NCBI GenBank assembly: GCA_964640845.1 | Contig: CAZXIR010000001.1 | Location: 1-48,960 of the forward strand | Length of the DNA stretch: 48,960 nucleotides | Source of the DNA: an uncultured Syntrophomonas sp. | GTDB taxonomy: Bacteria; Bacillota; Syntrophomonadia; Syntrophomonadales; Syntrophomonadaceae | Direction of reading: 5' to 3' | Part shown: piece by piece, positions 11,704-48,960 of the stretch | How the letters are laid out: the number at the start of each line of letters is the position of its first letter | How positions within the stretch are numbered: position 1 is the stretch's first letter | Program-made: the position numbers and the translations under genes | The notes under the pieces: generated by a model | Seen by the model: the letters and a program-made list of their open reading frames with translations, nothing else | The model's database searches: none | Told to the model about the DNA's origin: nothing

Positions 11704-11973
11704 AAATAAACCTCCCTAATGCCCTTTAGAAAAACTATAATGCAATAAATATGCCATCTTTTACTCCTTTGACAATCAGCGAAAATCGTCGTTTAATAGA
11801 ATAGAGCCATTCCTAAAATCGATCACTAGAATGAAATTCTTAGGTATTTTTATTAAAATTGTACTAATATGAGAATCGAAATTTTGAAAAATGACTGAAA
11901 TTTGATAATATTGTCGAATGATATTGAGTTGTAGAAATAGAGAAGCTGCTAGCTTAAAGGGGTGATTAATTTC

Positions 11974-31042: not shown

Positions 31043-31046
31043 TAAG

Positions 31047-31496
31047 GTGCAGGATTTTAACCTGGAGCAGATGGTCCAGAACCTGGAAGAGCAACTAGGA
31101 GATAAACTGAGAACGGTAATGGATCAATTTTTCACGGTCTTGAATGTAGAAAAAAGTGAATTAAAAACTTTAATGCTTAGACTCAGAGATAATTATGGAT
31201 TCAACCACCTGGCTAATCTTAGCTCGGTTGATTATAATGAGGAATTTGAAGTAGTTTACCACCTTTATTCGATTCCCACCAACCACAAGATTTGTGTTAA
31301 GACTAGGGTTCCCAGAAACTCGGCAGAAGTGGATTCGCTAATAGATATCTGGCCCACCGCCGACTGGCAGGAAAGAGAAGTATATGACCTGATGGGAATC
31401 CAGTTTAAAGGTCATCCCAACCTGATCCGGGTCTTGCTCCCGGACAATTTTGATGGGCATCCCCTGCGCAAGGATTTTGTGATGGGAGGGCGATGA
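31047..31496 (+). CDS. nuoC: Complex I subunit C
   Basis: 149 aa. WPTADWQEREVYDLMGIQFKGHPN signature. GTG start after GGAGGAG. Confidence 0.9.
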   Translation: MQDFNLEQMVQNLEEQLGDKLRTVMDQFFTVLNVEKSELKTLMLRLRDNYGFNHLANLSSVDYNEEFEVVYHLYSIPTNHKICVKTRVPRNSAEVDSLIDIWPTADWQEREVYDLMGIQFKGHPNLIRVLLPDNFDGHPLRKDFVMGGR

Positions 31497-31499
31497 TAG

Positions 31500-32600: not shown

Positions 32601-32649
32601 AAGCAGTCAATCCCATTGACTAATCAGACTCAAGAGGAGCGAATGATTT

Positions 32650-33690
32650 ATGGAACCTTTGTTTATTAATCTGGTAGCAGCCTTAACCGGGTGGCTGATA
32701 AGCCTGGGTTTGTCACCCATATGGGCCGATACTGTTTTGTTATTAGTTAAATGGATAATAATAATCACTATAATTACCCTAAACATTATTATCTTGATTT
32801 GGCTGGAGAGAAAAGTCAGTGCTTTTTTCCAGGAAAGATTGGGTCCCAATAGACTGGGGCCTTTCGGGATATTCCAAACCCTGGCTGACACCCTCAAGCT
32901 TTTGACCAAGGAAGATATTGTGCCGTCAGCAGCAGACAAACTCATTTTTAAAACCGCCCCCATGTTGTTCATAGTGGTGGCAGTAATGCTGTATACGGTA
33001 ATACCTATGGGTGAAGGTCTGGAAGTCATTAACTTGAATGTGGGACTATTGTTCTTCATTTCTATCGCATCTCTGGGTACCATTGCTCTGATAATGGCTG
33101 GCTGGGGATCCAATAATAAATGGTCTTTAATGGGCTCGCTGCGTTCAGTGGCCCAGATGATAAGTTATGAGATACCCCTGGCCTTTTCTCTGTTGGGAGT
33201 AGTGATGATCACCGGCTCATTAAACCTCCAGGATATTGTAGCGGCCCAAGATAACCTGTGGTTTATTATCCTGCAGCCGATTGCCTTTATAACCTATTTT
33301 ATTGCCGCTACAGCGGAGTTAAACAGGGGACCTTTCGATATGCCGGAAGCGGAGCAGGAACTGACCGGCGGTGCATATACCGAATATACCGGTATGCGTT
33401 GGGCGCTCTTTTTCCTGGCCGAATATACCAACCTGGTAGCCGTATCTGCTTTGATGGCCACCGTTTTCCTGGGCGGATGGCAGGGTCCCTGGCTGCCATC
33501 CTGGTTATGGATCATAATTAAGACTTACGGAGTTATCCTGGTATTTTTCTGGGTAAAATGGACTTTTCCCCGTATCCGTATGGATCATCTGATGTCTTTT
33601 AGCTGGAAGGTCTTGGTGCCAGTAAGTCTGGGCAACATACTGCTTACTGGCGCGGGAATCTATTTTTGCAGATGGATGGGGTGGTGTTAG
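32650..33690 (+). CDS. nuoH: Complex I subunit H
   Basis: 346-aa polytopic protein. ERKVSAFFQERLGPNRLGPFG and AELNRGPFDMPEAEQEL signatures. Confidence 0.9.
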   Translation: MEPLFINLVAALTGWLISLGLSPIWADTVLLLVKWIIIITIITLNIIILIWLERKVSAFFQERLGPNRLGPFGIFQTLADTLKLLTKEDIVPSAADKLIFKTAPMLFIVVAVMLYTVIPMGEGLEVINLNVGLLFFISIASLGTIALIMAGWGSNNKWSLMGSLRSVAQMISYEIPLAFSLLGVVMITGSLNLQDIVAAQDNLWFIILQPIAFITYFIAATAELNRGPFDMPEAEQELTGGAYTEYTGMRWALFFLAEYTNLVAVSALMATVFLGGWQGPWLPSWLWIIIKTYGVILVFFWVKWTFPRIRMDHLMSFSWKVLVPVSLGNILLTGAGIYFCRWMGWC

Positions 33691-33692
33691 AT

Positions 33693-34382
33693 ATGAATGG
33701 ACAAGGATTGATCAAAGGACTGGGCATTACCTTGAAACATTTCTTCCAGAAAGAGATAACCGAGCAGTATCCGGATGTAATGCCAGAACTGGCTCCGCGT
33801 TTTCGAGGCTGCCTGCAGTTTGAATTTGAAAAATGCATAGCCTGTGGTATTTGTGTAAACAGTTGTCCCAATAATGTGCTGTCATTTGAAACCGAAAAAG
33901 ATGAAAACAGTAAAAAGAAGAAACTGTTAAGCTATACCATAGATTTTCAACGCTGCATGTTCTGTAACCTTTGTGTGGAAGGCTGCCCCAAAGAGTGCAT
34001 ATATTTCGATCATAATTTTGAACTATCCAAATTCAATCGGGAGGATATAAAGATGGTCTATCTGCGCCCGGAAGGCCTGGACCTGCAAGAAGACGAAAGC
34101 GGTGCAGCCCAGCAAGACCAAAAGGTTGATAAAGAGCAGAAGCAGATCGAGGCCATGCAAAAAGCACTGCAGAAGAATCCCGGCAAAGTCCTGAGCAAAA
34201 TCATGGAACAGGAAGTGGATATCAATATATTGTCTGAATTGATGCAATCGGATGAGAAAACTGCCGGGAAAATTGCTGAGCTGATGGTTAAAGACAAAGA
34301 AAAGGCAGCTAAAGTAGCGGCAGGCTTTGTTAACAAGGAAAAGAAAAAGCGCCTCCAGGCAGAGGAAGGAGGAGAGGCATAA
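33693..34382 (+). CDS. nuoI: Complex I subunit I (2x[4Fe-4S]) with a roughly 105-aa Lys/Glu-rich C-terminal extension
   Basis: CIACGICVNSCP and CMFCNLCVEGCP motifs. ATG 33693 lies 2 nt after the nuoH stop. The tail from about 34065 is KE-rich low complexity. Confidence 0.85.
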   Translation: MNGQGLIKGLGITLKHFFQKEITEQYPDVMPELAPRFRGCLQFEFEKCIACGICVNSCPNNVLSFETEKDENSKKKKLLSYTIDFQRCMFCNLCVEGCPKECIYFDHNFELSKFNREDIKMVYLRPEGLDLQEDESGAAQQDQKVDKEQKQIEAMQKALQKNPGKVLSKIMEQEVDINILSELMQSDEKTAGKIAELMVKDKEKAAKVAAGFVNKEKKKRLQAEEGGEA

Positions 34383-34912
34383 TGTTGGATTTCTCTGCTT
34401 TCTCATTATATGATGCGGTATTTATAGCCATTGCTGGAGTAACGGTTTTTGGCGCCCTAGGGGTAGTCTTGTTCAGAAATATCATTTACAGCGCCTTGAG
34501 CCTGATTTTGGCCTTCCTGGGAGTAGCCGCAATCTATTTTCAGTTAAATGCCGGTTTTTTAGGAGTTATACAGATCCTGGTATATGCTGGAGCTATATCA
34601 GTATTGATTATTTTCGCCATTATGCTGGTGATGAATAGACCTGCCGGCAGATCTAATCTAACCAGTCCGCGCATCAGGGAAGCTTTTGTCGGTGGTACTA
34701 TTACTGCTATGATGCTTACGGCCCTGATTGCGGCCATTGGGCTTTCTGATTGGCCCAAAAGAGTGCTGTTTGCAGGAGCAGATGATACGGTGGGGATCTT
34801 GGCAGAACTAATGCTGGGTGACTATGTAGTGGCCTTTGAGGCCGCTGCTATACTACTCTTGGTAGCAGTTGTGGGGGCTATTATACTGGCAAAGGGGGTT
34901 GAAAACAAGTGA
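34382..34912 (+). CDS. nuoJ: Complex I subunit J
   Basis: 176 aa, five TM segments. ILVYAGAISVLIIFAIML signature. TAATG overlap with nuoI. Confidence 0.85.
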   Translation: MLDFSAFSLYDAVFIAIAGVTVFGALGVVLFRNIIYSALSLILAFLGVAAIYFQLNAGFLGVIQILVYAGAISVLIIFAIMLVMNRPAGRSNLTSPRIREAFVGGTITAMMLTALIAAIGLSDWPKRVLFAGADDTVGILAELMLGDYVVAFEAAAILLLVAVVGAIILAKGVENK

Positions 34913-35217
34913 TAGGATTACCCCATTATTTAGTACTGGGTGCGGTAGTTTTTTCCATTGGTGTTTTTGGAGTTCTAACCCGGCGTAATGCAGTAGCGGT
35001 ATTAATGTCGGTGGAACTGATGCTAAATGCGGTAAATATCAATTTCGTGGCTGCTAACAAGTTTGTTGCTGCCGGCACCGCGGTGGGACAGTTGTTTTCG
35101 GTATTCATTATTGTGGTAGCAGCGGCGGAAATCGCTGTCGGTCTGGCTCTGGTTATATCCATTTACCGGCAGCGGGGAACTATTGATCTCCATGATTTTA
35201 ATCTGTTGAAGTGGTGA
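34909..35217 (+). CDS. nuoK: Complex I subunit K
   Basis: 102 aa, three TM segments. MSVELMLNAVN and AAAEIAVGLAL signatures. GTGA overlap with nuoJ. Confidence 0.9.
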   Translation: MIGLPHYLVLGAVVFSIGVFGVLTRRNAVAVLMSVELMLNAVNINFVAANKFVAAGTAVGQLFSVFIIVVAAAEIAVGLALVISIYRQRGTIDLHDFNLLKW

Positions 35218-35218
35218 G

Positions 35219-37105
35219 GTGATGCATATGTATGAATTTATTTTACCTAATGCCTGGCTGATAGCCTTTTTGCCCTTTTTAGCTTCTGCACTAATAGGAT
35301 TATTTTTGCATCGCTGGCCCAGTTTATCAGCAGGTTTGTCTATACTCAGTATAGGTTTGGCATTTCTATTGTCTATCCCCATTGCCCTGGCAGTATTCTC
35401 GGAACCGGGAGGGGCAATATTCGAGTTTTCCGTGCGCTGGCTCAGTATGCCAGGATTACAGGTGGATATGGGTCTGCTCTTGGATCCGCTCACAGCGGTT
35501 ATGCTGATAGTAGTTACTTCAATAGCCACATTGGTGCAGATATATTCCCTGGGCTATATGGAGGGAGATCCGGGTTTTGCCAGTTATTTTGGCTACCAGA
35601 GTCTATTTGCAGCTTCCATGCTGGGTCTGGTGATGGCTAATAATTTTGGACAGATGTTTGTATTCTGGGAACTGGTAGGGATATGTTCCTATTTTCTGAT
35701 CGGGTTTTGGTTCGGGCTGGATTCTGCCAAAAACGCAGCCATCAAAGCCTTTATAACTAATCGGGTAGGAGACTTTGGATTTTTACTGGGGATACTATTC
35801 CTGCAGATTATTTTTGGTACCCTGAGTTTTACTGCTCTGGCCGACCAAGTGCCTGGCTTTACTAATATGGCAGTTTTAGTTCCGGTGGCCATACTGCTGT
35901 TCTTTGGACCCATGGGTAAATCGGCTCAGTTTCCTTTACATGGATGGCTGCCTGATGCCATGGAAGGTCCTACTCCGGTCAGTGCCTTGATTCATGCGGC
36001 CACCATGGTAGCCGCCGGGGTGTACCTGGTAGCCCGGGCCTTTTTCATATTTGCCAGTGTGCCACAGGCTATGACCGTAATAGCGGTAGTCGGTGGTTTT
36101 ACCGCCTTGTTTGCCGCTACCATCGCTATTACCCAGAATGATATTAAAAGGATCCTGGCTTATTCAACCTTAAGTCAGCTGGGGTATATGATGATGGCTA
36201 TGGGAGTAGGGGCTATGACTGCCGGTATGTTTCACTTGATGACTCATGCCTTCTTCAAGAGCCTTTTGTTCCTGGGGGCCGGTAGTGTGATACATGCTAT
36301 GCATGGTGAACAGAATATCTGGAAAATGGGCAATGTTTCCAAGAAGATGCCCATAACCACCTGGACCTTTATAATCGGGGCCTTGGCCCTGTCCGGAATT
36401 CCGCCCCTATCGGGATTTTGGAGCAAGGATGAAATACTCTTGGCTGCCTATTCCAGCGGCCATATGGGATTGTATGTTCTGGGGGCAGTAGTGGCTTTCA
36501 TGACCGCCTTTTATATGTTCCGGCTCATATTTACTGCCTTCTATGGTAAGAATACTCAGGGTGAGAAGGCCCATGAGAATAGAGGGGTTATTACCGTGCC
36601 TCTAATTCTCCTGGCCCTAGCAGCTATCTTGGTCGGCTTGGTTAATTCTCCCCTTATGCACCATGTGTTTGGAGAATTCGTCAACAGTCCGTTGGGCATC
36701 AATCCACATCCAAGCATGGCTATAATGATTTCATCCTCCCTGATAGCCGGGTCTGGAATATTACTGGCCTGGTTAATGTATCAGAAGGAGCTGATCAGTC
36801 ATAAAGCCTTGCGTAATAGATTTTCAGGCATTCACCAGCTGGTTCAGAATAAATACTATATCGATGAAATATATACCCGGATAGGAGAGATATTGGTTTA
36901 CGGAGGAGCCCGGGCCATGTTCTGGTTTGACATCCATGTGGTCAATGGGATAGTTGATGGCATCGCTTTTCTTACTGGTAAAAGTGGAGATACCTTGAGA
37001 TATACGGAAGATGGACAGGTTCAGAGCTATGCCATGTACATGATGGCCGGGGTATTAATCCTGGTAGTATTGGCTGCTGTAGCAGTCGAGTCGGCAGTAT
37101 TATGA
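35219..37105 (+). CDS. nuoL: Complex I subunit L (antiporter-like)
   Basis: 628 aa. GKSAQFPLHGWLPDAMEGPTPVSALIHAATMV signature. Confidence 0.9.
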   Translation: MMHMYEFILPNAWLIAFLPFLASALIGLFLHRWPSLSAGLSILSIGLAFLLSIPIALAVFSEPGGAIFEFSVRWLSMPGLQVDMGLLLDPLTAVMLIVVTSIATLVQIYSLGYMEGDPGFASYFGYQSLFAASMLGLVMANNFGQMFVFWELVGICSYFLIGFWFGLDSAKNAAIKAFITNRVGDFGFLLGILFLQIIFGTLSFTALADQVPGFTNMAVLVPVAILLFFGPMGKSAQFPLHGWLPDAMEGPTPVSALIHAATMVAAGVYLVARAFFIFASVPQAMTVIAVVGGFTALFAATIAITQNDIKRILAYSTLSQLGYMMMAMGVGAMTAGMFHLMTHAFFKSLLFLGAGSVIHAMHGEQNIWKMGNVSKKMPITTWTFIIGALALSGIPPLSGFWSKDEILLAAYSSGHMGLYVLGAVVAFMTAFYMFRLIFTAFYGKNTQGEKAHENRGVITVPLILLALAAILVGLVNSPLMHHVFGEFVNSPLGINPHPSMAIMISSSLIAGSGILLAWLMYQKELISHKALRNRFSGIHQLVQNKYYIDEIYTRIGEILVYGGARAMFWFDIHVVNGIVDGIAFLTGKSGDTLRYTEDGQVQSYAMYMMAGVLILVVLAAVAVESAVL

Positions 37106-37122
37106 GAGGGGGTAGGTAATCA

Positions 37123-38631
37123 ATGAACCAAATACCAGTATTAACTATAGCATTATTAGTACCACTGCTGGGAGCAGCGATAATCATGGGCCTGCCCGCT
37201 CTGCAGCACCAATGGATCAAGAGAACTGCTGCCATCTCCACCCTGGTCAGCCTGGTTTTATCTATAGCAGTATTGCTGGCTTATGACCAGACTGCGGGGG
37301 GAATGCAGTTTGTAGAGACCATACCTTGGATCAGGGATCTGGGGGTTAACTATGCCCTGGGGGTAGATGGGATAAGCATTCCCATGCTGCTCTTGACCAA
37401 TTTAATTGGGTTTAGTTCCATATATGCATCCTGGAATATTACTGAGCGGGTCAAGGAATTTTTTGCTCTGCTCTTAATACTCATTGCCGGAGTGATGGGA
37501 ACCTTTATAACCACGGATTTATTTATTTTCTTCCTATTTTATGAAGTAGTGGTGATACCCATTTATCTGATGGTGATAATGTTTGGCAGCACCAAACGGG
37601 TTACCAAAGAATACGCGGGAATGAAATTGACCATATATCTGCTCATCGGCAGCGCCTTCCTCCTTACTGGACTGATTGCTCTCTTTGTACAGGCTCAGGC
37701 TATCAGTGGCATAGCCAGTATGGATATGGCATTTCTAGCTACCCTGGAATATTCAACCGGCTTTCAGATTATTGTCTTTGCTTTTATGGCCTTTGGGTTC
37801 GGTACCCTGTTATCCATGTTCCCATTCCATGCCTGGTCACCGGATGGTTATGCCGGAGCGCCTACAGCTGTAAGTATGATTCATGCCGGAGTCTTGAAGA
37901 AGATCGGAGGATACGGATTAATCCGTATAGCCCTTACTATCCTGCCAGCAGGAGCCGCAGTTATAGCTCCGATCATTGCAGTATTGGCATTGGGCAATAT
38001 TGTTTATGCAGCCTATATCTGTTTAAGCCAGAAAGATTTGAAATATATTGTTGGTTATTCCAGTGTGAGCCACATGGGATATGTTTTAGTAGGCATCGCA
38101 GCCTTAAATATTATTAGCATAAACGGTGCAGTTATCATGATGTTTGCCCATGGGGTAATGGCGGCTCTGTTCTTTGCCATGATCGGCAACCTGTATGAAA
38201 AGAGCCATACCCGCAATATTGAAGATTTCGGTGGTCTGGCCCATCAGATGCCGAAACTGGCCACTGGCTTTATGATTGCCGGATTGGCTTCCTTAGGATT
38301 GCCGGGAATGGTTAATTTCATCGGTGAGTTTACCATATTCGTAGGAGCTTTCGGCACCTATAGAGTGATAACCATTATAGCCATATCGGGAATCGTATTT
38401 ACCGCCCTGTATGTCTTGCGGGCCCTGGGCAGGATGTTATTCGGACCTCGCAATGAGAAATGGGATCATCTGCAGGATTTAAAAGGAGTAGAGATGGTGC
38501 CCCTGATAGTACTGGGATTGGCTATTTTTATGGGAGGTTTCCTACCCTTTACCCTGATGGATTTAATCAATAGCGGTGTAGTAGACTTGGTAGCCCAGAT
38601 CGGATTGCCACAGATGGGAGGTTTATTATAA
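37123..38631 (+). CDS. nuoM: Complex I subunit M (antiporter-like)
   Basis: 502 aa. FPFHAWSPDGYAGAPTAVSMIHAGVLKK signature. Confidence 0.9.
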   Translation: MNQIPVLTIALLVPLLGAAIIMGLPALQHQWIKRTAAISTLVSLVLSIAVLLAYDQTAGGMQFVETIPWIRDLGVNYALGVDGISIPMLLLTNLIGFSSIYASWNITERVKEFFALLLILIAGVMGTFITTDLFIFFLFYEVVVIPIYLMVIMFGSTKRVTKEYAGMKLTIYLLIGSAFLLTGLIALFVQAQAISGIASMDMAFLATLEYSTGFQIIVFAFMAFGFGTLLSMFPFHAWSPDGYAGAPTAVSMIHAGVLKKIGGYGLIRIALTILPAGAAVIAPIIAVLALGNIVYAAYICLSQKDLKYIVGYSSVSHMGYVLVGIAALNIISINGAVIMMFAHGVMAALFFAMIGNLYEKSHTRNIEDFGGLAHQMPKLATGFMIAGLASLGLPGMVNFIGEFTIFVGAFGTYRVITIIAISGIVFTALYVLRALGRMLFGPRNEKWDHLQDLKGVEMVPLIVLGLAIFMGGFLPFTLMDLINSGVVDLVAQIGLPQMGGLL

Positions 38632-40049
38632 TGGATTTTTCTTTATTAGCCAGTGAAATCCTGATAGCCCTGTTAGGTCTGGCAGTTCTGGTTTTGGGTC
38701 TGTCCCTGCCGGGAAAGGCGCAAAAATATGTTAATGGTGTGGCACTAGCAGGTTTGGGCTTGATCCTGATTTATTTAATCACCGGCTTTTCTAAAGGAGC
38801 CACCCTATTCAACGGGGTTTATCAGATCGATTTATATGGCAACTATTTTAAGATATTATTCCTCAGTGCCGGTATCCTGGTAATGCTCATGGCAGGCAGT
38901 TATATCCAGCGCTTTGAAGAAAAGAGCAGTGAGTTTTACGGTTTGATGATATTGGCCACTTTGGGTATGATGCTCATGGTCTCCGCCGGGGAATTTATTA
39001 CCCTTTATGTGGGATTGGAATTAATGACCATAAGCTTCTATATTCTCACTGCATACCTGAAGAGTGATAAGCTGTCCGGTGAAGCGGGATTGAAGTACCT
39101 GATTCTAGGTGCAGTATCCTCGGCTATCCTCTTGTTCGGCATCAGCTTGGTGTATGCCAGTTTGGGAACCACTAATTTCATAGAAATTGGGGCGTCTTTC
39201 ACCTCATCCTCGGCGGTTATTGCCGGAGTAGTAATGATAATCGCCGGTTTTGCTTTTAAAGTCTCGGTAGTTCCCTTTCATATGTGGACCCCGGATATAT
39301 ATCAAGGTGCGCCTATTCCGGTTACTACCTATCTCTCAGTAGGTTCCAAGGCGGCCGGCTTTGCCGCATTAGTCAGAGTCTTCATGATAGCAGTTGATGT
39401 ATCCCAGCCAGTATTCAACTGGAGCCTGCTCCTGGCGGTCTTGGCAGCCATTACCATAATTATTGGCAACCTGATCGCACTGTCCCAGAGGGACATTAAA
39501 AGACTGTTGGCCTACTCCAGCATTGCCCAGGCCGGATATATCCTGGTGGGTGTAGCAGCCGCCAATTCTTACGGCTTAAAAGGGGTATTATTCTATGCCA
39601 TGATATATGTTTTTGCCAATGTGGGAGCATTTGCAGTGGCCACAGCGGTGGAAGTGGATACCGGCCGAACTGATATAGAGGCCTTCGCCGGCTTGAGTAA
39701 ACGTTCACCGCTGCTGGCAGCTATAATGACCATTTGTATGCTATCCCTGGCTGGCATTCCCCCCATGGCCGGTTTTGCCGGCAAGTTCTATTTGTTTGCC
39801 GGCGCCATACAGGCAGGATATCTGTGGCTGGCCTTAATCGGTTTGATCATGAGTATGGTATCAGTATACTATTACCTGGGGGTTTCCAAAGCCATGTACA
39901 TCGGGGAAAACAAACAGGAAAAACCACTGGGTATAGGATTAGCCAGTACCGTAGCTCTGTGGGTATGTGTTCTGGCTACCATCCTCCTAGGAGTTTACCC
40001 GGGACCATTATCAGAACTGGTCGGCGCTGCCATACAAGTATTAATGTAA
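38631..40049 (+). CDS. nuoN: Complex I subunit N (antiporter-like)
   Basis: 472 aa. VPFHMWTPDIYQGAPIPVTTYLSVGSKAAG signature. TAATG overlap with nuoM. Confidence 0.9.
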   Translation: MDFSLLASEILIALLGLAVLVLGLSLPGKAQKYVNGVALAGLGLILIYLITGFSKGATLFNGVYQIDLYGNYFKILFLSAGILVMLMAGSYIQRFEEKSSEFYGLMILATLGMMLMVSAGEFITLYVGLELMTISFYILTAYLKSDKLSGEAGLKYLILGAVSSAILLFGISLVYASLGTTNFIEIGASFTSSSAVIAGVVMIIAGFAFKVSVVPFHMWTPDIYQGAPIPVTTYLSVGSKAAGFAALVRVFMIAVDVSQPVFNWSLLLAVLAAITIIIGNLIALSQRDIKRLLAYSSIAQAGYILVGVAAANSYGLKGVLFYAMIYVFANVGAFAVATAVEVDTGRTDIEAFAGLSKRSPLLAAIMTICMLSLAGIPPMAGFAGKFYLFAGAIQAGYLWLALIGLIMSMVSVYYYLGVSKAMYIGENKQEKPLGIGLASTVALWVCVLATILLGVYPGPLSELVGAAIQVLM

Positions 40050-40120: not shown

Positions 40121-40195
40121 ACAAGCCACGGGGACAGGTTCCTTGGCCCACTTTGGATTGCCGAGTGGGCCAAGAAACCTGTCCCCGTGGCTTGT
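40121..40195. repeat. Long inverted repeat (32-bp arms, one mismatch) between convergent operons
   Basis: ACAAGCCACGGGGACAGGTTCCTTGGCCCACT (40121-40152) vs AGTGGGCCAAGAAACCTGTCCCCGTGGCTTGT (40164-40195), 11-nt loop. TTTCTACTTTTG follows. Confidence 0.9.
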
Positions 40196-40276: not shown

Positions 40277-41620
40277 TCATTTTGCCTGAAAATAGAATTT
40301 GCTTTTCAATCCTTCTTTCAACTCGCCCCTAAAGTCGGGATGAGCTATGGAAATAAGCTCCATGGCGCGTTCTCGTCTAGTTTTATACTTTAGCTTTGCA
40401 ACACCATATTCGGTTACAATATGATCAGAAAAAGTACGTGGTACAGTAACCGGAGTTCCCAGTGGCAACTCGGGGAGAATGTTAGAGCTCAGACTGCCAT
40501 CCGGTCGTTTACTTGATGAAGGAACCAACGTTATGGCCCTACCGCCTTGCGACCAGAATGCACCCATCTGGAAGTTAAGCTGTCCGCCAGTGCCGCTGAT
40601 GTGCCTGTCTCCTACCCCTTCTGATGCAATTTGTCCGGTAAAATCTATCATAATTGCGCTATTAATAGAGACCATGTTGGAATGGCTGGCAATAAACCCA
40701 GGATTATTAGTATAGCTGGCGGGATGAAGCTCGAAGACCGGATTTGTTGAAACATAATCGTATAGCTCCTGATCCCCCAGGCAAAAGGTTGCAATGCTTA
40801 CGCCTCTGTGATAGGGCTTACAGTCGTTGGTAACAATCCCTTTTTCTATCAATTGGCCCAAGCCTGCGGGAGCCATTTCCGATAGTATCCCTAGGTTGTG
40901 CTTTCCCTCCAAATTAGCAACTACTGCTTCTGAAATCCCTCCTACACCCATTTGAATGGTATTTCCGTCATTAATTAATTCCAAAACCCTCTTTGCAAAG
41001 CCTATTTCGAATTCTGTTGGAATGATTTTGGGTAAAGTGGGTATAAATGTAGAGTTTTCAACAAAAAAATCAAACTGTGAAATGTGTGCCCAATTGTTGC
41101 CAAACACTACGGGCATTTGCTCGTTTACTTCTCCGATTACTAAACGAATACCTGATTCCTTTCTACTAATTAACATGTCTGTATGATAAAAATTGGATAA
41201 TCCAAAATTAACGTATCCACGACTATCGGGAGGAGTGACCATTAATATGAAGACGTCAGTTATTTTGTTTAGTTTATCGGCAACATCATTGCCCTGAACG
41301 GGATAAAAATCAACCAGTTGCTCTTTGAATATTTTTCGGCTGATCTTGAGACAAAAACCGGACATCGAATTTATTTTACCTTCAATTGATGCCATAAATT
41401 CTGGATCTACCAATCTGCTCGATTTAGTTAATACAACATCACAGATCCGAACATTCTCCAATTCCTGGTTTCGATCCAGAATAGCATCCACTACCTGTCC
41501 AGATGGACCTGAAACCCCAAATCCAATCGTGACGGTATCTCCAGATTCAACTTTGCCAGCCAATTCATTAATGGAAATCAGCTTTTTTTTATATTCTGAC
41601 TGCCACATATTTGATTTCAT
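40277..41620 (-). CDS. Acetyl-CoA hydrolase/transferase family protein (4-hydroxybutyrate CoA-transferase-like)
   Basis: 447 aa. LGILSEMAPAG (candidate catalytic Glu region) and SGTGGQLNFQMGA, typical of this CoA-transferase family. Confidence 0.8.
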   Translation of the reverse strand: MKSNMWQSEYKKKLISINELAGKVESGDTVTIGFGVSGPSGQVVDAILDRNQELENVRICDVVLTKSSRLVDPEFMASIEGKINSMSGFCLKISRKIFKEQLVDFYPVQGNDVADKLNKITDVFILMVTPPDSRGYVNFGLSNFYHTDMLISRKESGIRLVIGEVNEQMPVVFGNNWAHISQFDFFVENSTFIPTLPKIIPTEFEIGFAKRVLELINDGNTIQMGVGGISEAVVANLEGKHNLGILSEMAPAGLGQLIEKGIVTNDCKPYHRGVSIATFCLGDQELYDYVSTNPVFELHPASYTNNPGFIASHSNMVSINSAIMIDFTGQIASEGVGDRHISGTGGQLNFQMGAFWSQGGRAITLVPSSSKRPDGSLSSNILPELPLGTPVTVPRTFSDHIVTEYGVAKLKYKTRRERAMELISIAHPDFRGELKEGLKSKFYFQAK

Positions 41621-41661
41621 ACTTACATCCCCTTTCAGATTGTATTTTCAACACCGCCTGG

Positions 41662-42843
41662 TTAGATAATCTTTTTCATGGTCAAAGCTTTAAGGTCTTC
41701 AGCACTATAGCCTATACCCGACAAGACCTCCTCTGTATGTTCTCCCACTTCCGGAGGGGGAGTTTGCCATCCCGGTGCAATGGTGTCAAATTTTATCGGG
41801 AAAGCCATCTGAGGTACCAACCCCTCCAGAGAATACTCCTGCATGAACCAAAGTCCACGATTTATTATATGGGGGTCATTAAGCGCATCCTCGAAATTAT
41901 TCACTTGAGTTAGACAAACATCATAATTTTTGAAAACTTCCATCCATTCTGTACTAGATTTTTGCTTAAATATCTCAGCTACTTCTAAGATGATTTCTGT
42001 ACGTTGGGGTTCCCCGACAAACATCTCGGCAATCAGTTCTTCTCGCTCTACAACCTTGCAAAAGTTGCTCCAGAACTTTTCTTCTACACAGCCCAAAGCC
42101 AGATACTTCCCGTCTGAAGCCTGGTAGACATTATAGAATGCATAACCACCATTAATCCAATCGTCTGATATCCGATGTAAATCTCTTTCTACCATATACT
42201 GAGGCATGCCAAAACTTAGGAAGAAGTTTAGCCCATCGACCATGGCTACATCCAAAAACTGGCCAACCCCGGTGGAACGCTTTCCGTAAAGGGCTCCCAA
42301 AATAGCAATAGTTGCAGGTAAAGATCCGCCCCCTATGTCTGCAATAGGCAGTCCAGCCAGAATCGGTCTTCCTTCCCGTGTTTCCATCATGCTGAGTGCC
42401 CCACTAATCCCCAAATAATTAAGATCATGGCCCGGCAAATCCTTGTAGGGACCGTCCTGCCCGTAGCCGGTAAGAGAACAGTAAACTAAGCCGGGATTAA
42501 TCTCCCGCAAATGTTCCCAGCCCAGACCCAATCTGTCCATAACCCCCGCGCGAAATGTTTCCATAACAACATCGGCGGATTTGACTAGTCTTTTAAAAAT
42601 TTCCCTTCCTTCATCATCGCGGAGATTAAGCCGGATGCTCTTCTTGTTTCGATTTAAGGTGTAGAAAACTGGATTTTGATGCTTCATTTTAGGTTCTATC
42701 CAGCGGATGTAATCCCCGCCCACATGGTCTTCAATCTTGATAACTTCGGCACCCAGATCTGCCAGAATCAGAGTGCAAAGAGGCCCAGGAAGCAAGCGGG
42801 ATAAGTCTAAAACCTTGATCCCTTTGAGCGGTAAATTCATCAT
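41662..42843 (-). CDS. Family III CoA-transferase / alpha-methylacyl-CoA racemase superfamily (CaiB/BaiF)
   Basis: 393 aa. GIKVLDLSRLLPGPLCTLILADLGAEVIKIE N-terminal signature. Confidence 0.85.
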   Translation of the reverse strand: MMNLPLKGIKVLDLSRLLPGPLCTLILADLGAEVIKIEDHVGGDYIRWIEPKMKHQNPVFYTLNRNKKSIRLNLRDDEGREIFKRLVKSADVVMETFRAGVMDRLGLGWEHLREINPGLVYCSLTGYGQDGPYKDLPGHDLNYLGISGALSMMETREGRPILAGLPIADIGGGSLPATIAILGALYGKRSTGVGQFLDVAMVDGLNFFLSFGMPQYMVERDLHRISDDWINGGYAFYNVYQASDGKYLALGCVEEKFWSNFCKVVEREELIAEMFVGEPQRTEIILEVAEIFKQKSSTEWMEVFKNYDVCLTQVNNFEDALNDPHIINRGLWFMQEYSLEGLVPQMAFPIKFDTIAPGWQTPPPEVGEHTEEVLSGIGYSAEDLKALTMKKII

Positions 42844-42896
42844 AATCGCTCCTCTTTTTTAATTCCATAACCGCATTATCGGTGTCGTGTTGTTGC

Positions 42897-44060
42897 TTAC
42901 TTTGTTAGAATATGAACGCCTGCGACAACAGCAGATTCGATATTGGTAAGTACCCCACCCAGCATTTGGGCCATACCTACTTTGGCTCCTGGTACCTGAT
43001 TTGCACCCACCTCGCCCCAAAGCTGTCTGGCAACATCGACTACTACACGCACACCGGAAGCTCCCAAAGGATGTCCCATTGACAGTAATCCACCGCTAGG
43101 ATTGACTGGGCAGCGGCCGCCCATTTGTGCAGCCCCAGATCGGGCAAAAGCCACACCTTCACCAGGCTTGCACAGGCCCAACATTTCATATGCCGCCAGT
43201 TCTTCTCCCGAGAAGGCATCGTGTAGCTCTACCAAATCAATGTCTTTTTGGGGATCTACGCTTGCCATTACGCAAGCGGTCTTGGCGCCATCAACCAAAC
43301 TTTTCAAAGCCAGAGGATCATATGACGCGTCCTGGGCTCCGCTCACAGAAATGACAGAACCTGCAATCCTAATCGGTTTGCGTTTCCCTTTATTATGCTT
43401 TTCAAAATACTCCTTACTGCATAGTATAATAGCTGCTCCCCCGTCGCTTTGCGGAGTACACTGTAATACAGTTATTGGTTCTGCAATCATAGGAGAAGCC
43501 ATAATATCTTCGAATGTAACTTCAGTCTTGTACTGGGAGTATGGATTTGTCATCCCTGCCTTGTGGTTCTTAATTGAGGCATAACAAATATCCTCAAGTG
43601 TTGCACCGCGCTCCTGAATAAGCCGATTACACAGCTTGGCAAAAAAAGAAGGCATGGTTAATGCTAATTTGCTCTCAAGATCACCCTCAATGGCAATAAG
43701 CCCCTTACCCCACTTCTTATTAAAAGCGGACAAGGACTCAACACCAACAGCGATTCCAATATCGCAAAAATCTGAGGCAATATCTTTGTACAATAACTGT
43801 ATGGCGCTGGAGCCACTGGCGCATGCATTTTCAACGGTATACATAGGAATCCTGTCTATCCCCAAACGAGTGAGTATAGATTGGATAGGATTAGGTGGAC
43901 TGTATATCGATCCACAATAAGCGATTTGCAATAATTTGGGTGAGATACCAGCATCCTTGATTGCAGCCAAAGCCGCGGCTGCGCCCAAGTCATTTACGGT
44001 CTTATCGGCATGTTTGCCAAAAATGGTTTGACCAATACCAAGCACATATACGTTTCTCAT
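42897..44060 (-). CDS. SCP-x / nonspecific lipid-transfer-type thiolase
   Basis: 387 aa. VENACASGSSA active-site Cys region, C-terminal NPSGGLLSMGHPLGASG. Start overlaps the stop of the DUF35 gene (ATGA). Confidence 0.85.
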   Translation of the reverse strand: MRNVYVLGIGQTIFGKHADKTVNDLGAAAALAAIKDAGISPKLLQIAYCGSIYSPPNPIQSILTRLGIDRIPMYTVENACASGSSAIQLLYKDIASDFCDIGIAVGVESLSAFNKKWGKGLIAIEGDLESKLALTMPSFFAKLCNRLIQERGATLEDICYASIKNHKAGMTNPYSQYKTEVTFEDIMASPMIAEPITVLQCTPQSDGGAAIILCSKEYFEKHNKGKRKPIRIAGSVISVSGAQDASYDPLALKSLVDGAKTACVMASVDPQKDIDLVELHDAFSGEELAAYEMLGLCKPGEGVAFARSGAAQMGGRCPVNPSGGLLSMGHPLGASGVRVVVDVARQLWGEVGANQVPGAKVGMAQMLGGVLTNIESAVVAGVHILTK

Positions 44061-44467
44061 TTATCATCTACCTCCTCTACAGGCACGTAGTAGTAACCGA
44101 GAACTTCAGTGCCATCCTTTTCAGTCCAAAGAACGCCGGTTTCCATTTTTACTCTCATGCCCGTTTTGACATCCTGCACATTAGCATGAATTTGTCCAAA
44201 CACGCGGGTGCCTTCAGGTAAGTCGATATAAGCACCAATAATAGGTGGTTTGTATGGGCCAACAGGAACCCTGGTTACACTAAAAGAAAACACAATTCCT
44301 TTGGTACTAAGAGGAACCTTTTCCAGATCGTCAGAGGAGCAGAATGGACAAAGCTCTACAGCAGGGAAAGAGGTTTTGCCACAGTACTTGCACATATTTC
44401 CCATTTGCATGAGCATGCCATTCATTTCATCTAATGCCCCTGGATGAAAAACGATTTGCTTATTCAT
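44057..44467 (-). CDS. DUF35 Zn-ribbon/OB-fold protein (thiolase-associated, BbsA-like)
   Basis: CKYCGKTSFPAVELCPFCSS four-Cys ribbon followed by an OB-fold-like segment. ATG 44467 follows AAAGGTGAGGGTG. The track start at 44521 lacks an RBS. Confidence 0.8.
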   Translation of the reverse strand: MNKQIVFHPGALDEMNGMLMQMGNMCKYCGKTSFPAVELCPFCSSDDLEKVPLSTKGIVFSFSVTRVPVGPYKPPIIGAYIDLPEGTRVFGQIHANVQDVKTGMRVKMETGVLWTEKDGTEVLGYYYVPVEEVDDK

Positions 44468-44676
44468 GTATTCACCCTCACCTTTCATTAATAAATTCTT
44501 TGTTTGCGCAATTATCATCATTTCTGATTACTTGTCCAACCTCTTCAATAAATTCTTGAATAAAACCTGAGCTATGCCGATAAGTCCAAAACCTTAATCC
44601 TTCATCGGCAAATACATAATAATCAAGTCTTTTTAAGGTGCTAATTTCATATTACTAACGCAGGTTTCAATATAAT

Positions 44677-45831
44677 TTATAACTGCCCGCTGTAGAGCGC
44701 TTTGGCGGTGATCATCTTCATCACCTCGGTGGTGCCGCCATAAATGTTCATTATCCTGGCATCAACAAATCTCCTGGCGATTTCATACTCAGTACAGTAT
44801 CCGTAACCGCCAAACAACTGCAGGCACTGGTTCATCACCCGGTTTTGCAGCTCACAGGTATAGTTTTTGGCCATAGCCGCCGTCACATCTACATTCTCGC
44901 CGGCCGCCTCCACTAGAATACATTTTTCGACAAAAGCTCTACCCGCGGCAATTTGAGTTGCCAGTTCAGCCAGTACAAACTGGGTATTTTGGAATGATGC
45001 TAGTGGTTTCCCAAATACCTTTCTTTCATTGGTGTAGTTAACGGTTAACTCTAACGCACCTTCTGAATTAGCAATCGCTAGCATAGCAATAGTTATTCTT
45101 TCCCGTCCGAGCCGATGCATCATCTGGACGAAACCATGGTTTTCTTTACCCAAAAGATTAAAGGCAGGTACCCGGCAGTTGTCAAAGTACACTGGGCAGG
45201 TATCCTGAGCATGCTGCCCCAGTTTCTCTATTTGAGGGCCAATCTCCATACCCGGGGTGCCCTTTTCAACGACGAATAAGCTTATTCCCTCCGCAGGCCT
45301 ACCGTCAAACTTAGTTCTAGCTGCAACAACGAACATATCTGCATTTATGGCATTGGAAATGAACATTTTGGAACCGTTGATAATCCAATCATCGCTATCT
45401 TTAACCGCCCTGGTTGTTATCCCCTGAACATCTGAGCCAATCCCCGGTTCCGTTATGCACAGACCACACAGTTTCTTTGCCGCATTCAAATCACTGAGCC
45501 AGCGGTCTTTTTGTTGCTTATTCCCAAAGGCATCAAAATAGGGTATAAGGATAGCTGCTGTAACAATGGTGTGCACACTCAGAAAATTCTTTCGACCCAA
45601 TTCCTCAAGTATAATATTCCAATATAGGAAGTCACCTCCATCACCGCCGTATTCAGGATCACCATCCGGATTGTAATATCCGTATTCCGCCATCTTGCTA
45701 TAAAGTGTCTTCGGAATAATCCTGTCTTTTTCCCATTGGAGGTAATGGGGCGCAATTTCCTTCTCAACGAATTTAGTGAACCCTGTTCGAAACATCCTGT
45801 GTTCATCTGTATATGGTAGGATAGACTTCAA
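44677..45831 (-). CDS. Acyl-CoA dehydrogenase
   Basis: 384 aa. CITEPGIGSDV, typical length, C-terminal IYGGTTEVMK with the catalytic Glu region. Confidence 0.9.
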   Translation of the reverse strand: MKSILPYTDEHRMFRTGFTKFVEKEIAPHYLQWEKDRIIPKTLYSKMAEYGYYNPDGDPEYGGDGGDFLYWNIILEELGRKNFLSVHTIVTAAILIPYFDAFGNKQQKDRWLSDLNAAKKLCGLCITEPGIGSDVQGITTRAVKDSDDWIINGSKMFISNAINADMFVVAARTKFDGRPAEGISLFVVEKGTPGMEIGPQIEKLGQHAQDTCPVYFDNCRVPAFNLLGKENHGFVQMMHRLGRERITIAMLAIANSEGALELTVNYTNERKVFGKPLASFQNTQFVLAELATQIAAGRAFVEKCILVEAAGENVDVTAAMAKNYTCELQNRVMNQCLQLFGGYGYCTEYEIARRFVDARIMNIYGGTTEVMKMITAKALYSGQL

Positions 45832-45930
45832 ATCAATAATCTCCTTTCTATCGATTGATCACTAGCTTTCACTGTTTGCCCGTTCCCATACGTTTGACCC
45901 TCTTTCAGGTTGTTGTCATCCAAATACAAA

Positions 45931-46731
45931 CTAGTACCCTTTAAACTCTGGCTTCCTCTTTTCCACGAAAGCCGTTAGCCCTTCGGATAAATCGTAAGAT
46001 CTTATATGTTGTCGTAGAGCAAGCAGTTCCGAATGTATGGCAATCTTCACAGGTTGATCTAAACCCTGAACAACCAGCTTTTTCATGCGTCTCAAAACCA
46101 ATGGGCTTTTTGCAGACAATTTATCCGCTAATTTCTGAACAACAACCTCTAGTTCTGCGTCCGGTACCACCTGGCTTACAAGCCCAAACTCTTTCATCTC
46201 TGCAGATGAGATAAATTCGCCGGTAAACAAAAGGTACTTTGCACGGTTCAGTCCAATTCTTCTGGGCAAATGGACTGATCCGCCGGCCCCTGGCAGCACT
46301 CCAAAGTTAGAATGTGCATCACCAATCTTTGCTGAATCAGCTGCCAAGATCAGGTCAGCTGCCATTGCCAGTTCTAAACCGCCAGCTAAAGTAAGACCAT
46401 TTAGGGCAGCTATGAAAGGTTTGGGGAAATCAGCCAACATTCCAAAGGCTTGCTCAACGATCTCGAAAAAATCAGGTTCTGCACTTGGTTCCTGTGATAT
46501 AGTTTCGAATACTACCTTAAGATCGGCTCCGGCGCAAAAGGCAGGGCCTTTCCCGCTCATTACAAGGACTCTAATATCGTCATCAAGTCTTGCCTTTGAA
46601 AGAACCTCTTGGATTTCCAGTAACATGCCCGATGTGATTGAATTCATATCTTTGGGACGATTTAAGTAAATCCATAAGGTTTGATTGCGTTTTTCGCAGA
46701 GGATCTCTTTATAAATCTCCTGATAGCTCAA
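45931..46731 (-). CDS. Enoyl-CoA hydratase/isomerase (crotonase) family
   Basis: LNRPKDMNS, FCAGADLK oxyanion-hole motif, GLTLAGGLELAMAAD. Likely TTG start at 46731, 6 nt after AGGAGGTG. The track start is 46755. Confidence 0.85.
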   Translation of the reverse strand: MSYQEIYKEILCEKRNQTLWIYLNRPKDMNSITSGMLLEIQEVLSKARLDDDIRVLVMSGKGPAFCAGADLKVVFETISQEPSAEPDFFEIVEQAFGMLADFPKPFIAALNGLTLAGGLELAMAADLILAADSAKIGDAHSNFGVLPGAGGSVHLPRRIGLNRAKYLLFTGEFISSAEMKEFGLVSQVVPDAELEVVVQKLADKLSAKSPLVLRRMKKLVVQGLDQPVKIAIHSELLALRQHIRSYDLSEGLTAFVEKRKPEFKGY

Positions 46732-46775
46732 ACATCCCACCTCCTGTATCAACAATGTTTGTTAAGCAAATACGA

Positions 46776-47546
46776 TTATTTCATGGGTAAACGGAGCCCC
46801 TCATCAAGCCTGATAGTTTCACCATTCAAATACGGATTCTCGATAATGTGTTCTACCAGGAACCCAAATTCATCAGGTTTTCCCATGCGGGAAGGGAATG
46901 GAATGCCCTTGCATATTTCGACCTTCATGTGATCTGGCACCCCGCTCAGGATGGAAGTGTCAAAAAGCCCCGGGGCAATCGCGCAGCACCGAATGCCATC
47001 ACCGCTTAGATCTCTGGCAATAACCAGGGTCATTCCGACTACAGCTGCTTTACTGGCTGAATAGGCCGCCTGGCCCACTTGCCCATCATAGGCTGCTCCC
47101 GAAGAACAGTTTACGATGACTCCTTTTTCACCGTTCTCATTTGGTTGGTTCTTGAGCATATAGAAAGCGCACTGCCTGATAGTGTCAAAGTTGCCGATTA
47201 AATTGATATCAATGGTTCTTTTAAAAGCATCCAATTTGAATGGCCCTTTTTTTGTAGCAGTTTTGGATCCACTCCCAATCCCAGCGATAGGACAGCAAAT
47301 ATCTATCCGGTCCCATTTATCCATAACTCCGTCTACAGCTGCCTGAACCTCTTCGGGAACTGCTACATTGGCATTAAAGAAAACAACCTTATCGCTGCCT
47401 AATTCTTCAACCAAAGCCTTTCCGCCAGCCTCATTCATGTCCAGTATGGCTACCCTGGCCCCTTTACTCACCAGCCTGCGTACGGTCGCTTCACCCAGAC
47501 CGGAAGCTCCGCCTGTAACCACCGCCACTCTATCCTTTATGTCCAT
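46776..47546 (-). CDS. SDR, 3-hydroxyacyl-CoA dehydrogenase type-2 (HSD10)-like
   Basis: 256 aa. VTGGASGLGEAT, YSASKAAVVGMT. GGGAGGTG RBS. First gene after the sigma-54 promoter. Confidence 0.85.
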   Translation of the reverse strand: MDIKDRVAVVTGGASGLGEATVRRLVSKGARVAILDMNEAGGKALVEELGSDKVVFFNANVAVPEEVQAAVDGVMDKWDRIDICCPIAGIGSGSKTATKKGPFKLDAFKRTIDINLIGNFDTIRQCAFYMLKNQPNENGEKGVIVNCSSGAAYDGQVGQAAYSASKAAVVGMTLVIARDLSGDGIRCCAIAPGLFDTSILSGVPDHMKVEICKGIPFPSRMGKPDEFGFLVEHIIENPYLNGETIRLDEGLRLPMK

Positions 47547-47671: not shown

Positions 47672-47687
47672 TGCAATACCGGTGCCA
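47672..47687 (-). promoter_or_regulatory. Sigma-54 (-24/-12) promoter
   Basis: Minus strand reads TGGCAC-CGGTA-TTGCA, an exact match to the TGGCAC-N5-TTGCA consensus. It lies about 125 nt upstream of the SDR start codon at 47546, and a sigma-54 activator gene is divergently adjacent. Confidence 0.85.
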
Positions 47688-47910: not shown

Positions 47911-48960
47911 ATGCTAATGGTTGATAACAAGTTAGCCGACTTAACAAACGATGATTTACTAGAAATTTTGAGCAGCCTTTCTGATGCTGTTGCGCTAAGC
48001 AATGAGTATGGACGTGTCATTTGGTTAAATAAAAGTCTTTGTGATTTATTGAATATCTCTCAGGAAGAATGGATGGGCAAAACAACCCGCGATCTCATAA
48101 ATGAAGGCCATATCACTCGATCATTAGCCAAAATAAAAACTAACGGAGTATCGACGGGATTTATCCTCACCAAGGATGGGAAAGAATTTATGAGTTCCGT
48201 CCGCCCCATATTTGATAAAGAGCACAAAATAAGGTTTTATTTATCTACTTCAATGGTTTTAGAGGAACTCAACAATCTCAAATTTCAACTGGATAAGTTA
48301 AGACGGCAAAACAATAGATATCATAGTGAGATTCAGTGTTTAAGAGAGCTTCTTTTTTTGGATAATGATATGGTCTTTGAAAGCGCTGAAATGAGGTCGT
48401 TGGTAAATTACGTAATTAAGGTTGCCGCTTTCGACACTACGGTTCTCATAACAGGAGAGTCTGGTGTTGGTAAAGAGGTGCTGGCTAAAACCATCCACCT
48501 AAATAGTCGTAGAAAGAATGGTCCTTTCATTCCTGTAGTAATACCGTCAATTCCTTCAAATCTATTGGAAACTGAGTTGTTCGGATATACAGAAGGAGCC
48601 TTTACAGGCGCGGTCCGCGGCGGAAAAGTAGGATTAATTGAGATTTCCCAGGGAGGTACTTTGTTCCTGGATGAGATCGGGGACTGTCCTAATGATATCC
48701 AGGTTAAAATTCTTCGCACTCTTGAAACCAATGAGATTAGAAGAGTGGGCGGAACAAAGAACATTAAGCTGGATTTAAGAATAGTTGCTGCAACCAATAA
48801 AAATCTTCCTCAAATGATTGATAAAGGACTTTTTCGAGAGGACTTATTTTATAGGTTAAATGTATTACCTCTCCATATAAAGCCGTTGAGAGAACGACCC
48901 AAAGATATTGAGCCGCTGTGCCAATTCTTTATCGAGAAATTAAACAACAAATACAATCTT
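47911..48960 (+). CDS. PAS-domain sigma-54-dependent transcriptional activator (partial, runs off the window end; absent from the ORF track)
   Basis: My own translation from ATG 47911: MLMVDNKLADLTNDDLLEILSSLSDAVALSN... (PAS-like), then GESGVGKEV Walker A, GAFTGA, TLFLDEIGD Walker B and RIVAATNKNL. 350 codons open to the end of the window. Confidence 0.85.
   Translation, partial: MLMVDNKLADLTNDDLLEILSSLSDAVALSNEYGRVIWLNKSLCDLLNISQEEWMGKTTRDLINEGHITRSLAKIKTNGVSTGFILTKDGKEFMSSVRPIFDKEHKIRFYLSTSMVLEELNNLKFQLDKLRRQNNRYHSEIQCLRELLFLDNDMVFESAEMRSLVNYVIKVAAFDTTVLITGESGVGKEVLAKTIHLNSRRKNGPFIPVVIPSIPSNLLETELFGYTEGAFTGAVRGGKVGLIEISQGGTLFLDEIGDCPNDIQVKILRTLETNEIRRVGGTKNIKLDLRIVAATNKNLPQMIDKGLFREDLFYRLNVLPLHIKPLRERPKDIEPLCQFFIEKLNNKYNL

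Follow-up and report, generated by a model that had tools for sequence, protein, structure and literature searches.

A candidate sigma-54-dependent operon for the beta-oxidation of 2-methyl-branched acyl-CoAs in an uncultured Syntrophomonadaceae bacterium

Which acid is the substrate of the seven-gene, CoA-dependent beta-oxidation operon at positions 40277–47546 of the 48,960-nucleotide (nt) stretch presented above? The stretch, hereafter the window, is the entire contig C1 of a 2.76-Mb metagenome-assembled genome (MAG) from an uncultured Syntrophomonadaceae bacterium, which comprises 382 contigs and is 95.8% complete. An initial annotation held that the operon acts on branched or bulky acyl-CoAs rather than on ordinary ones, framed it as an operon like that for benzylsuccinate (bbs), and proposed that its two CoA-transferases serve separate activation and recycling steps. 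The general idea holds on the enzyme set; the bbs framing and the two-transferase scheme do not withstand closer comparison. Because a racemase-type protein, an LCAD/IVD-type acyl-CoA dehydrogenase, a crotonase, an HSD10-type dehydrogenase, and an SCP2-type thiolase occur together, the operon reads as a sigma-54-dependent system for the beta-oxidation of alpha-methyl-branched (2-methyl) acyl-CoAs, an assignment to which we give an even chance. We infer the substrate from this enzyme set, and the prime candidate would be 2-methylbutyrate or a close homolog.

All seven open reading frames (ORFs) lie on the minus strand, and their families, as first named from the letters alone, are borne out by strong Pfam matches and by agreement with solved structures. 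In transcription order they encode an HSD10-type short-chain dehydrogenase/reductase (SDR; 46776–47546; adh_short, 5.5e-45); a crotonase-type enoyl-CoA hydratase (ECH; 45931–46755; ECH_1, 6.6e-58); an acyl-CoA dehydrogenase with an LCAD/IVD-type catalytic base (ACAD; 44677–45831; three Pfam ACAD domains); a DUF35 protein, the likely thiolase partner (44057–44521; OB_ChsH2_C, 1.8e-10; zf-ChsH2, 6.6e-05); an SCP2/SCP-x-type thiolase (42897–44060; Thiolase_C_1, 2e-33); a protein of the family III CoA-transferase fold, read here tentatively as an alpha-methylacyl-CoA racemase or epimerase (41662–42843; CoA_transf_3, 1.7e-108); and, as the last gene, a 4-hydroxybutyrate/butyryl-CoA:acetate-type CoA-transferase (40277–41620; AcetylCoA_hyd_C, 2.1e-53). 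A profile search brought none of the seven proteins to an NCBIfam equivalog cut-off. The successive intergenic gaps measure 20, 99, 155, −4 (an overlap), 53, and 41 nt. The probable true start of the DUF35 gene is an ATG at 44467, preceded by the ribosome-binding site GGTGAGGG; from this start the protein is 137 amino acids (aa) long, the same length as its orthologs, and the gap behind the ACAD gene widens to 209 nt.

Alignment of the family III protein to solved structures places its His139, Asp169, and Glu254 on His126, Asp156, and Glu241 of the M. tuberculosis racemase MCR, residues whose mutation is reported to lower MCR activity (PMC10967716). The surrounding motifs are likewise close (GHDLNY, ADIGGGS, and VEEKFW, as compared with GHDINY, GDFGGGS, and IEPQFY in MCR). 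SUGCT and formyl-CoA transferase, aligned alongside, carry Tyr, Asp, and Asn at the triad positions, and both the His and the Glu are absent. Among the 120 closest database homologs, a MAFFT alignment shows the triad as HDE in 99 and as HGE in the remaining 21, which may be cases of local misalignment. The same HDE triad is found in 21 of 23 aligned paralogs and cluster copies, the exceptions being those on contigs C19 and C194, which read FDW and YDN. Whole-length structural matches to SUGCT (7e-59), formyl-CoA transferase, and AMACR all fall between 1e-59 and 1e-54, and the BbsE and BbsF chains (9fn0) are much more distant (9e-34 and 2e-32). On these alignments the protein looks like an alpha-methylacyl-CoA racemase or epimerase, and the proposal of two CoA-transferases, one for activation and one for recycling, gives way: the family III gene bears the MCR triad, and in the aligned transferases two of its residues, His and Glu, are missing. 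A succinate-glutarate CoA-transferase role was considered for this gene and rejected on its score (228 vs. a cut-off of 750) and on the presence of the racemase triad. A protein-atlas lookup returned generic CaiB/BaiF clusters only.

The remaining enzymes would supply the other steps of such a pathway. The initial label of the SDR as HSD10-like is upheld, human HSD10 being its best structural match at 243.7 bits; type II HADH enzymes and close homologs of these make up its top 16 PDB matches, with human and rat HSD10 at 240–244 bits. For the crotonase, the best NCBIfam model is PRK07657 (201.6 vs. a cut-off of 363) and the best PDB match is 5zai (182.8 bits). The ACAD is closest in the PDB to 2pg0 (345 bits) and human LCAD (305.7 bits), with SCAD and SBCAD at about 225 bits. 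Its Glu244 aligns with the helix-G base Glu291 of LCAD, and a Gly (IYGGT) occupies the position of the MCAD Glu. LCAD is described as using Glu291 on helix G as catalytic base and as accepting branched substrates, its Pro132 unwinding helix E in connection with a large cavity (PMC10925408).

The DUF35 protein consists of a Cys4 zinc ribbon (CxxC-N10-CxxC) and an OB fold; its gene adjoins that of the thiolase with a 4-nt overlap, and it is predicted to be the partner subunit of this SCP2-type enzyme. The best solved relative of the thiolase is BbsB (7pxp_C, 241.8 bits), and alignment to BbsB shows that the nucleophilic Cys (ENACASG), the His of the GHP motif, and the HDAF motif are all kept. 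Steroid side-chain retro-aldolases of the Ltp2/Sal type, by comparison, have lost the nucleophilic Cys and carry a YDHF or YDCY motif (PMC12329534). Because the Cys is retained, the operon protein is a thiolase and not an aldolase of this kind, and the suggestion of an Ltp2-type steroid system is ruled out on the criterion of that source. The last gene has a 4-hydroxybutyrate CoA-transferase as its best structural match (3eh7, 291 bits), in line with the label given to it initially, and scores 227.7 against TIGR03948 (cut-off 674.8).

Taken together, these enzymes suggest the following route. The 4-hydroxybutyrate-type CoA-transferase would move CoA from acetyl- or propionyl-CoA onto the free acid, and the family III protein, as a racemase, would turn (2R)- into (2S)-2-methylacyl-CoA. 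The ACAD would then produce a 2-methyl-enoyl-CoA, the crotonase would hydrate it, and the HSD10-like SDR would oxidize the resulting 3-hydroxy-2-methylacyl-CoA; finally, the DUF35/SCP2-type thiolase would release propionyl-CoA and a shortened acyl-CoA, which in the case of 2-methylbutyrate would be acetyl-CoA. The last gene is presumed to be the activating enzyme because, in related modules, a ligase in sulfate reducers and a CoA-transferase in energy-limited syntrophs swap places; with activation so assigned, the family III gene would be free to act as a racemase.

The operon is predicted to be controlled by sigma-54 through a divergently encoded activator of the PAS type, which would turn it on from a −24/−12 promoter. 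The promoter candidate, TGGCACcggtaTTGC (47673–47687, minus strand), matches the sigma-54 consensus exactly and precedes the start codon of the SDR gene by 127 nt. A genome-wide search gave 19 matches to the extended pattern TGGCACN5TTGCW, as compared with 0 for a control pattern, a number at which sigma-54 control appears unusually common in this genome. By their coordinates, at least three of these sites (on C63, C69, and C201) lie just upstream of acyl-CoA genes, and rpoN is present on contig C36. The activator gene (47911–48960, plus strand) encodes within the window the N-terminal 350 of 464 aa of a sigma-54 enhancer-binding protein with PAS and AAA+ domains (Sigma54_activat, 3.6e-62). 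Two more such proteins are encoded on C1 (11962–14061, plus strand; 15471–17375, minus strand), among FAD_binding_2 flavoproteins and PucR-type regulators, and a further box, TGGCATatttaTTGC, stands at 11742–11756 (minus strand) upstream of a PucR-type gene (10510–11703).

A strict regular expression for sigma-54 boxes found none in the intergenic regions of four sulfate-reducer loci with related modules (L002, L013, L014, and L015); by eye, each holds TGGCAC with a degenerate −12 element (TTGG, TTGA, or GTGA), which lends weak support to similar control there. In L002 (4560–4850) and in L013 and L014 (3590–3840), loci of Desulfosarcina alkanivorans and Desulfatitalea, two palindromes each, close to TCATATATGAC, are seen upstream of TGGCAC; these palindromes are possible activator binding sites.

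The neighborhood beyond position 48960, which the initial annotation had proposed to inspect, could be followed across a contig join. The last 55 nt of C1 (48906–48960) are the reverse complement of the end of contig C43 (locus L054, 1–16972), and this 55-mer is unique in the assembly. The activator ORF runs in frame over the join to a stop at C43:16573, giving the 464-aa protein, whose C-terminal part contains AAA_lid_14 and HTH_8. C43 next holds a sigma-54 box, the gene for a 709-aa second activator (CBS-PAS-PAS-AAA+-HTH), and a sigma-54 box with one mismatch; after these comes a paralogous operon, here called operon 2 (the operon in the window being operon 1), so that the two operons stand back to back. 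Its eight genes encode an ECH, an ACAD, an SDR, an SCP2 thiolase, a DUF35 protein, a triad-bearing family III protein, and two CoA-transferases, one a near-equivalog of the butyryl-CoA:acetate type (612 vs. a cut-off of 674.8) and the other a second 4-hydroxybutyrate-type enzyme. Protein identities between the two operons range from 34 to 55%.

Operon 2 and its activator were recovered from all nine same-genus genomes searched, with thiolases 82–99% identical, and operon 1 was found in none of the nine, where the best thiolase match reached 37–38% and the best family III match 47%. In the nearest of these genomes (G001; NuoL 94% identical), nuoN stands directly beside the abiGi-like gene that in the MAG comes after operon 2; the 22.5-kb block holding both operons is therefore missing at that site, and synteny with this relative ends at 40036–40047. 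The operon-2 thiolase (L054, 8047–9222) is 99% identical to copies in G005 (contig C38) and G003 (contig C495), whose NuoL is only 80–82% identical, and the 12.5-kb operon-2 region shares 90.7% DNA identity with G005; these values hint that operon 2 was recently exchanged among members of the genus. Two genes are absent from the copy in G007, the racemase-type gene and that for the butyryl-CoA:acetate transferase. Elsewhere in the MAG, genome-wide searches matched 21 ACAD, 16 AcetylCoA_hydro-type CoA-transferase, and 15 ECH proteins and six DUF35 genes, and further small clusters of ACAD, ECH, CoA-transferase, and SDR genes lie on C13, C19, C22, C33, C53, C63, C69, C194, C201, C214, and C249.

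A scan of one genome per species returned 18 thiolase loci, 16 at 73–80% identity and two, from Eubacterium, at 50%. The hosts of the 16 are Smithella, Syntrophaceae, Desulfosarcina alkanivorans PL12, Desulfatitalea, Desulfocicer vacuolatum, and a handful of MAGs with odd labels. No thiolase match at E ≤ 1e-100 appeared in 400 other genomes sampled across the host phylum, and the DUF35–thiolase pair was not found in 40 relatives. Firmicute thiolase homologs in a large protein database come from Tepidanaerobacteraceae (85%), Desulfitobacteriaceae (76%), and Papillibacter cinnamivorans (68%). The DUF35 protein is 60–80% identical to DUF35 proteins that adjoin orthologous thiolases in other loci. 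The patchy spread of this DUF35–thiolase clade across phyla fits horizontal transfer. Mis-binning of the contig was considered and rejected, the neighboring NuoL being 79–94% identical in all nine same-genus genomes; the GC content at third codon positions in the operon (0.38–0.48) is inside the genomic range (0.42 ± 0.05). The placement of the host in Syntrophomonadaceae rests on NuoL, whose named database matches belong to Syntrophomonadaceae or Syntrophomonas. A metagenome scan with the SDR returned one close locus (L029; 79%, 3.9 kb), and the other 11 loci hold distant SDRs.

Downstream of operon 1, a palindromic element of about 70 nt (40121–40195) stands between the operon end and the convergent nuoN; with its flanks it is predicted to form a hairpin of −76.5 kcal/mol. 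Several dozen other contigs carry whole or half copies, in several cases at the contig end. The element looks like a REP-like dispersed repeat, is a possible terminator, and may contribute to the fragmentation of the assembly. Beyond it lies an 11-gene nuo operon (30174–40049; nuoA, B, C, D, H, I, J, K, L, M, and N). With no nuoE, F, or G between nuoD and nuoH, the NADH-oxidizing module is therefore not encoded at this locus.

Several observations weigh against the 2-methyl-branched assignment. The His/Asp/Glu triad is necessary for racemase chemistry and would not by itself prove racemase activity, and by whole-length score the family III protein is as near SUGCT and formyl-CoA transferase (1e-59) as AMACR (1e-55). 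The 2-methylbutyrate derived from L-isoleucine is the (S) form, which should need no racemase. The ACAD does not keep the Pro132 of LCAD and has Val86 instead. The thiolase has as its best solved relative BbsB, which cleaves a bulky aromatic substrate, and has a 68%-identical homolog in P. cinnamivorans. The family III gene is seen in only six of the 18 fetched thiolase loci, many of which are short, and three long loci (L001, L006, and L011) carry the DUF35–thiolase pair in unrelated contexts; the pair is therefore not tied to the module. Finally, a second transcript start is possible within the operon, in the 155–209-nt gap before the DUF35 gene, where sigma-70-like matches are found; a scan of the operon for promoters and terminators gave no more sites than shuffled sequence, and so is silent on internal starts and stops.

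The thiolase evidence would suit the side-chain beta-oxidation of an aromatic or alicyclic acid (3-phenylpropionate, cinnamate, or a 2-arylpropionate that requires a racemase), in which the thiolase would release an aroyl-CoA; both its BbsB relationship and the P. cinnamivorans homolog favor this reading, as do studies of MCR-type racemases with 2-arylpropanoyl-type ligands (PMC10967716, PMC12682127). It nevertheless seems unlikely: the marker of the benzoyl-CoA ring-cleaving hydrolase, TIGR03200, reaches at best 77.8 in the genome (cut-off 464), and on ordinary crotonases; the host family is named for fatty-acid syntrophs; the SDR is nearest to the enzyme of isoleucine and 2-methyl-branched breakdown; and a racemase is unnecessary for 3-phenylpropionate. 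A bbs-like pathway for an aryl- or alkyl-succinate formed by fumarate addition shares its gene families with the operon; moreover, BbsA is the only NCBIfam match of the DUF35 protein, BbsB ranks second for the thiolase, and the automatic JGI label of many thiolase homologs is "BbsB subunit." The scores themselves, however, are far below the cut-offs of the BbsA model NF053627 (83 vs. 250) and the BbsB model NF053628 (261.7 vs. 750). In place of the paired BbsEF and BbsCD genes, the operon has a single SDR gene and a single family III gene, whose product bears the racemase triad and matches BbsE and BbsF at only about 1e-33. The initial annotation had noted that no bss-type glycyl-radical genes are in the window; a PF01228 search now extends this to the whole MAG, where no fumarate-adding enzyme was found and the sole match is a pyruvate formate-lyase (TIGR01255, 957.7 bits; a 616-aa piece of a 745-aa frame). 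With the benzoyl-CoA lower-pathway marker missing as well, a bbs-like pathway is already largely refuted, and we regard it as highly improbable. Metagenome surveys could mistake the automatic "BbsB" label for a sign of anaerobic toluene degradation.

The operon might also be a redundant paralog for short- or medium-chain straight-chain beta-oxidation, the family III gene being incidental or serving another role. The many ACAD, ECH, and CoA-transferase copies counted above would agree with this, as would the multiple beta-oxidation gene sets reported in Syntrophomonadaceae (PMC5017805) and the reported fitness effect of the type II dehydrogenase PP_2214 of Pseudomonas putida on hexanoate as well (bioRxiv 10.1101/2020.07.04.188060). 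Such redundancy is improbable, in our estimate, given that distant phyla and operon 2 show the same association of a racemase-triad gene with an HSD10-type SDR and a DUF35/SCP2 thiolase, and that the operon has a dedicated sigma-54 activator of its own. Very unlikely, to our mind, is a mainly condensing and reductive role, in which acetyl- or propionyl-CoA would be joined with propionyl-CoA and reduced to 2-methyl-branched C5 or C6 acids, whether as an electron sink or in the course of a dismutation. The thiolase, SDR, ECH, and ACAD steps could in principle run in either direction, such modules in Smithella contain orthologous pairs (76–78% identical), and the enzymes of the propionate-dismutating step of Smithella are described in PMC13685792 as never identified. 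The AMP-forming ligase of the sulfate-reducer versions, on the other hand, indicates that a free acid is taken up and degraded, and no mutase lies within or beside the operon. A bolder form of it, which we hold to be just as speculative and improbable, would make the conserved module a reversible maker and breaker of the 2-methyl-3-oxoacyl-CoA bond: the Smithella orthologs (thiolase 76–78%) would condense two propionyl-CoA in propionate dismutation, and the present bacterium would have gained that thiolase pair as a means of converting propionate into 2-methyl-branched C5/C6 acids, or the reverse, according to hydrogen pressure. If this were true, the shared thiolase pair might offer candidates for the missing Smithella step (PMC13685792).

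The assignment to 2-methyl-branched acids would bear on a gap in what has been published. Degraders of 2-methylbutyrate are known in Syntrophomonadaceae, and their enzymes are called unclear in PMC5017805; PMC5109826 states that 2-methylbutanoate genes could not be assigned in D. multivorans. The literature searched holds no experimental substrate assignment for a module of this kind, and the published acetone and limonene clusters differ from it. The gene families and the type of pathway are already known. What was not met in that literature is an anaerobe module combining a DUF35/SCP2 thiolase, a racemase-type gene, activation by a CoA-transferase, and sigma-54 control, nor its duplication around two activators. 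Methanogenic digestion requires that the branched-chain fatty acids that arise from protein be broken down syntrophically, and operon 1 with its genus-wide paralog would provide a concrete, testable gene set for this process with a dedicated sigma-54 switch.

Among the systems with which the operon can be compared are the modules of D. alkanivorans PL12, Desulfatitalea, D. vacuolatum DSM 3385, and Smithella/Syntrophaceae, for none of which the literature searched gives a substrate. Their DUF35 proteins (65–80%), thiolases (73–78%), and SDRs (about 50%) resemble those of operon 1; ECH, ACAD, and triad-bearing family III proteins are encoded as well, at identities of only 33–44%. The three sulfate-reducer loci examined share the divergent sigma-54 enhancer-binding protein, but an AMP-forming ligase there replaces the CoA-transferase; the Smithella/Syntrophaceae modules, in turn, share the 4-hydroxybutyrate-type CoA-transferase (53–57% identical), whereas a TetR regulator takes the place of the sigma-54 activator.

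The bbs operon likewise combines a DUF35 zinc-ribbon subunit with an SCP2-type thiolase—BbsB (7PXP) being the closest solved structure—and has the family III fold and the ACAD, ECH, and SDR families in common with operon 1. It differs in the BbsA and BbsB scores, which operon 1 misses by far, in the pairing of its family III and SDR genes, in the racemase residues of the family III protein described here, and in the fumarate-adding enzyme, which was not found in the present 95.8%-complete genome. In the peroxisomal oxidation of 2-methyl-branched acids (pristanate and the bile-acid side chain), AMACR is paired with an SCP-x thiolase, and M. tuberculosis MCR serves in cholesterol use. Operon 1 has in common with this route the His/Asp/Glu racemase triad, a thiolase of the SCP2 family, and an ACAD whose nearest eukaryotic relative is LCAD; unlike it, operon 1 is small and bacterial, includes a short-chain-type CoA-transferase, and has neither a steroid-type MaoC hydratase nor an Ltp2 aldolase, and its ACAD is without the cavity-forming Pro132.

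By analogy of enzyme types, the nearest experimentally supported bacterial operon is PP_2213–PP_2217 of P. putida, reported to serve the beta-oxidation of 2-methylbutyrate (from isoleucine) to acetyl-CoA and propionyl-CoA, with mutant fitness values of −3.2 to −5.7 for PP_2213, PP_2214, PP_2215, and PP_2217 and of −1.1 for PP_2216 (bioRxiv 10.1101/2020.07.04.188060). In both operons, an ACAD and an ECH are encoded together with a type II (HSD10-like) dehydrogenase, a thiolase, and an enzyme for activation. In P. putida, however, activation is by a ligase, whereas here it would be by a 4-hydroxybutyrate-type CoA-transferase; the thiolase described here is of the SCP2 type and is predicted to have a DUF35 partner, the operon includes a racemase-type gene, and the predicted sigma-54 control would operate in a strictly anaerobic host.

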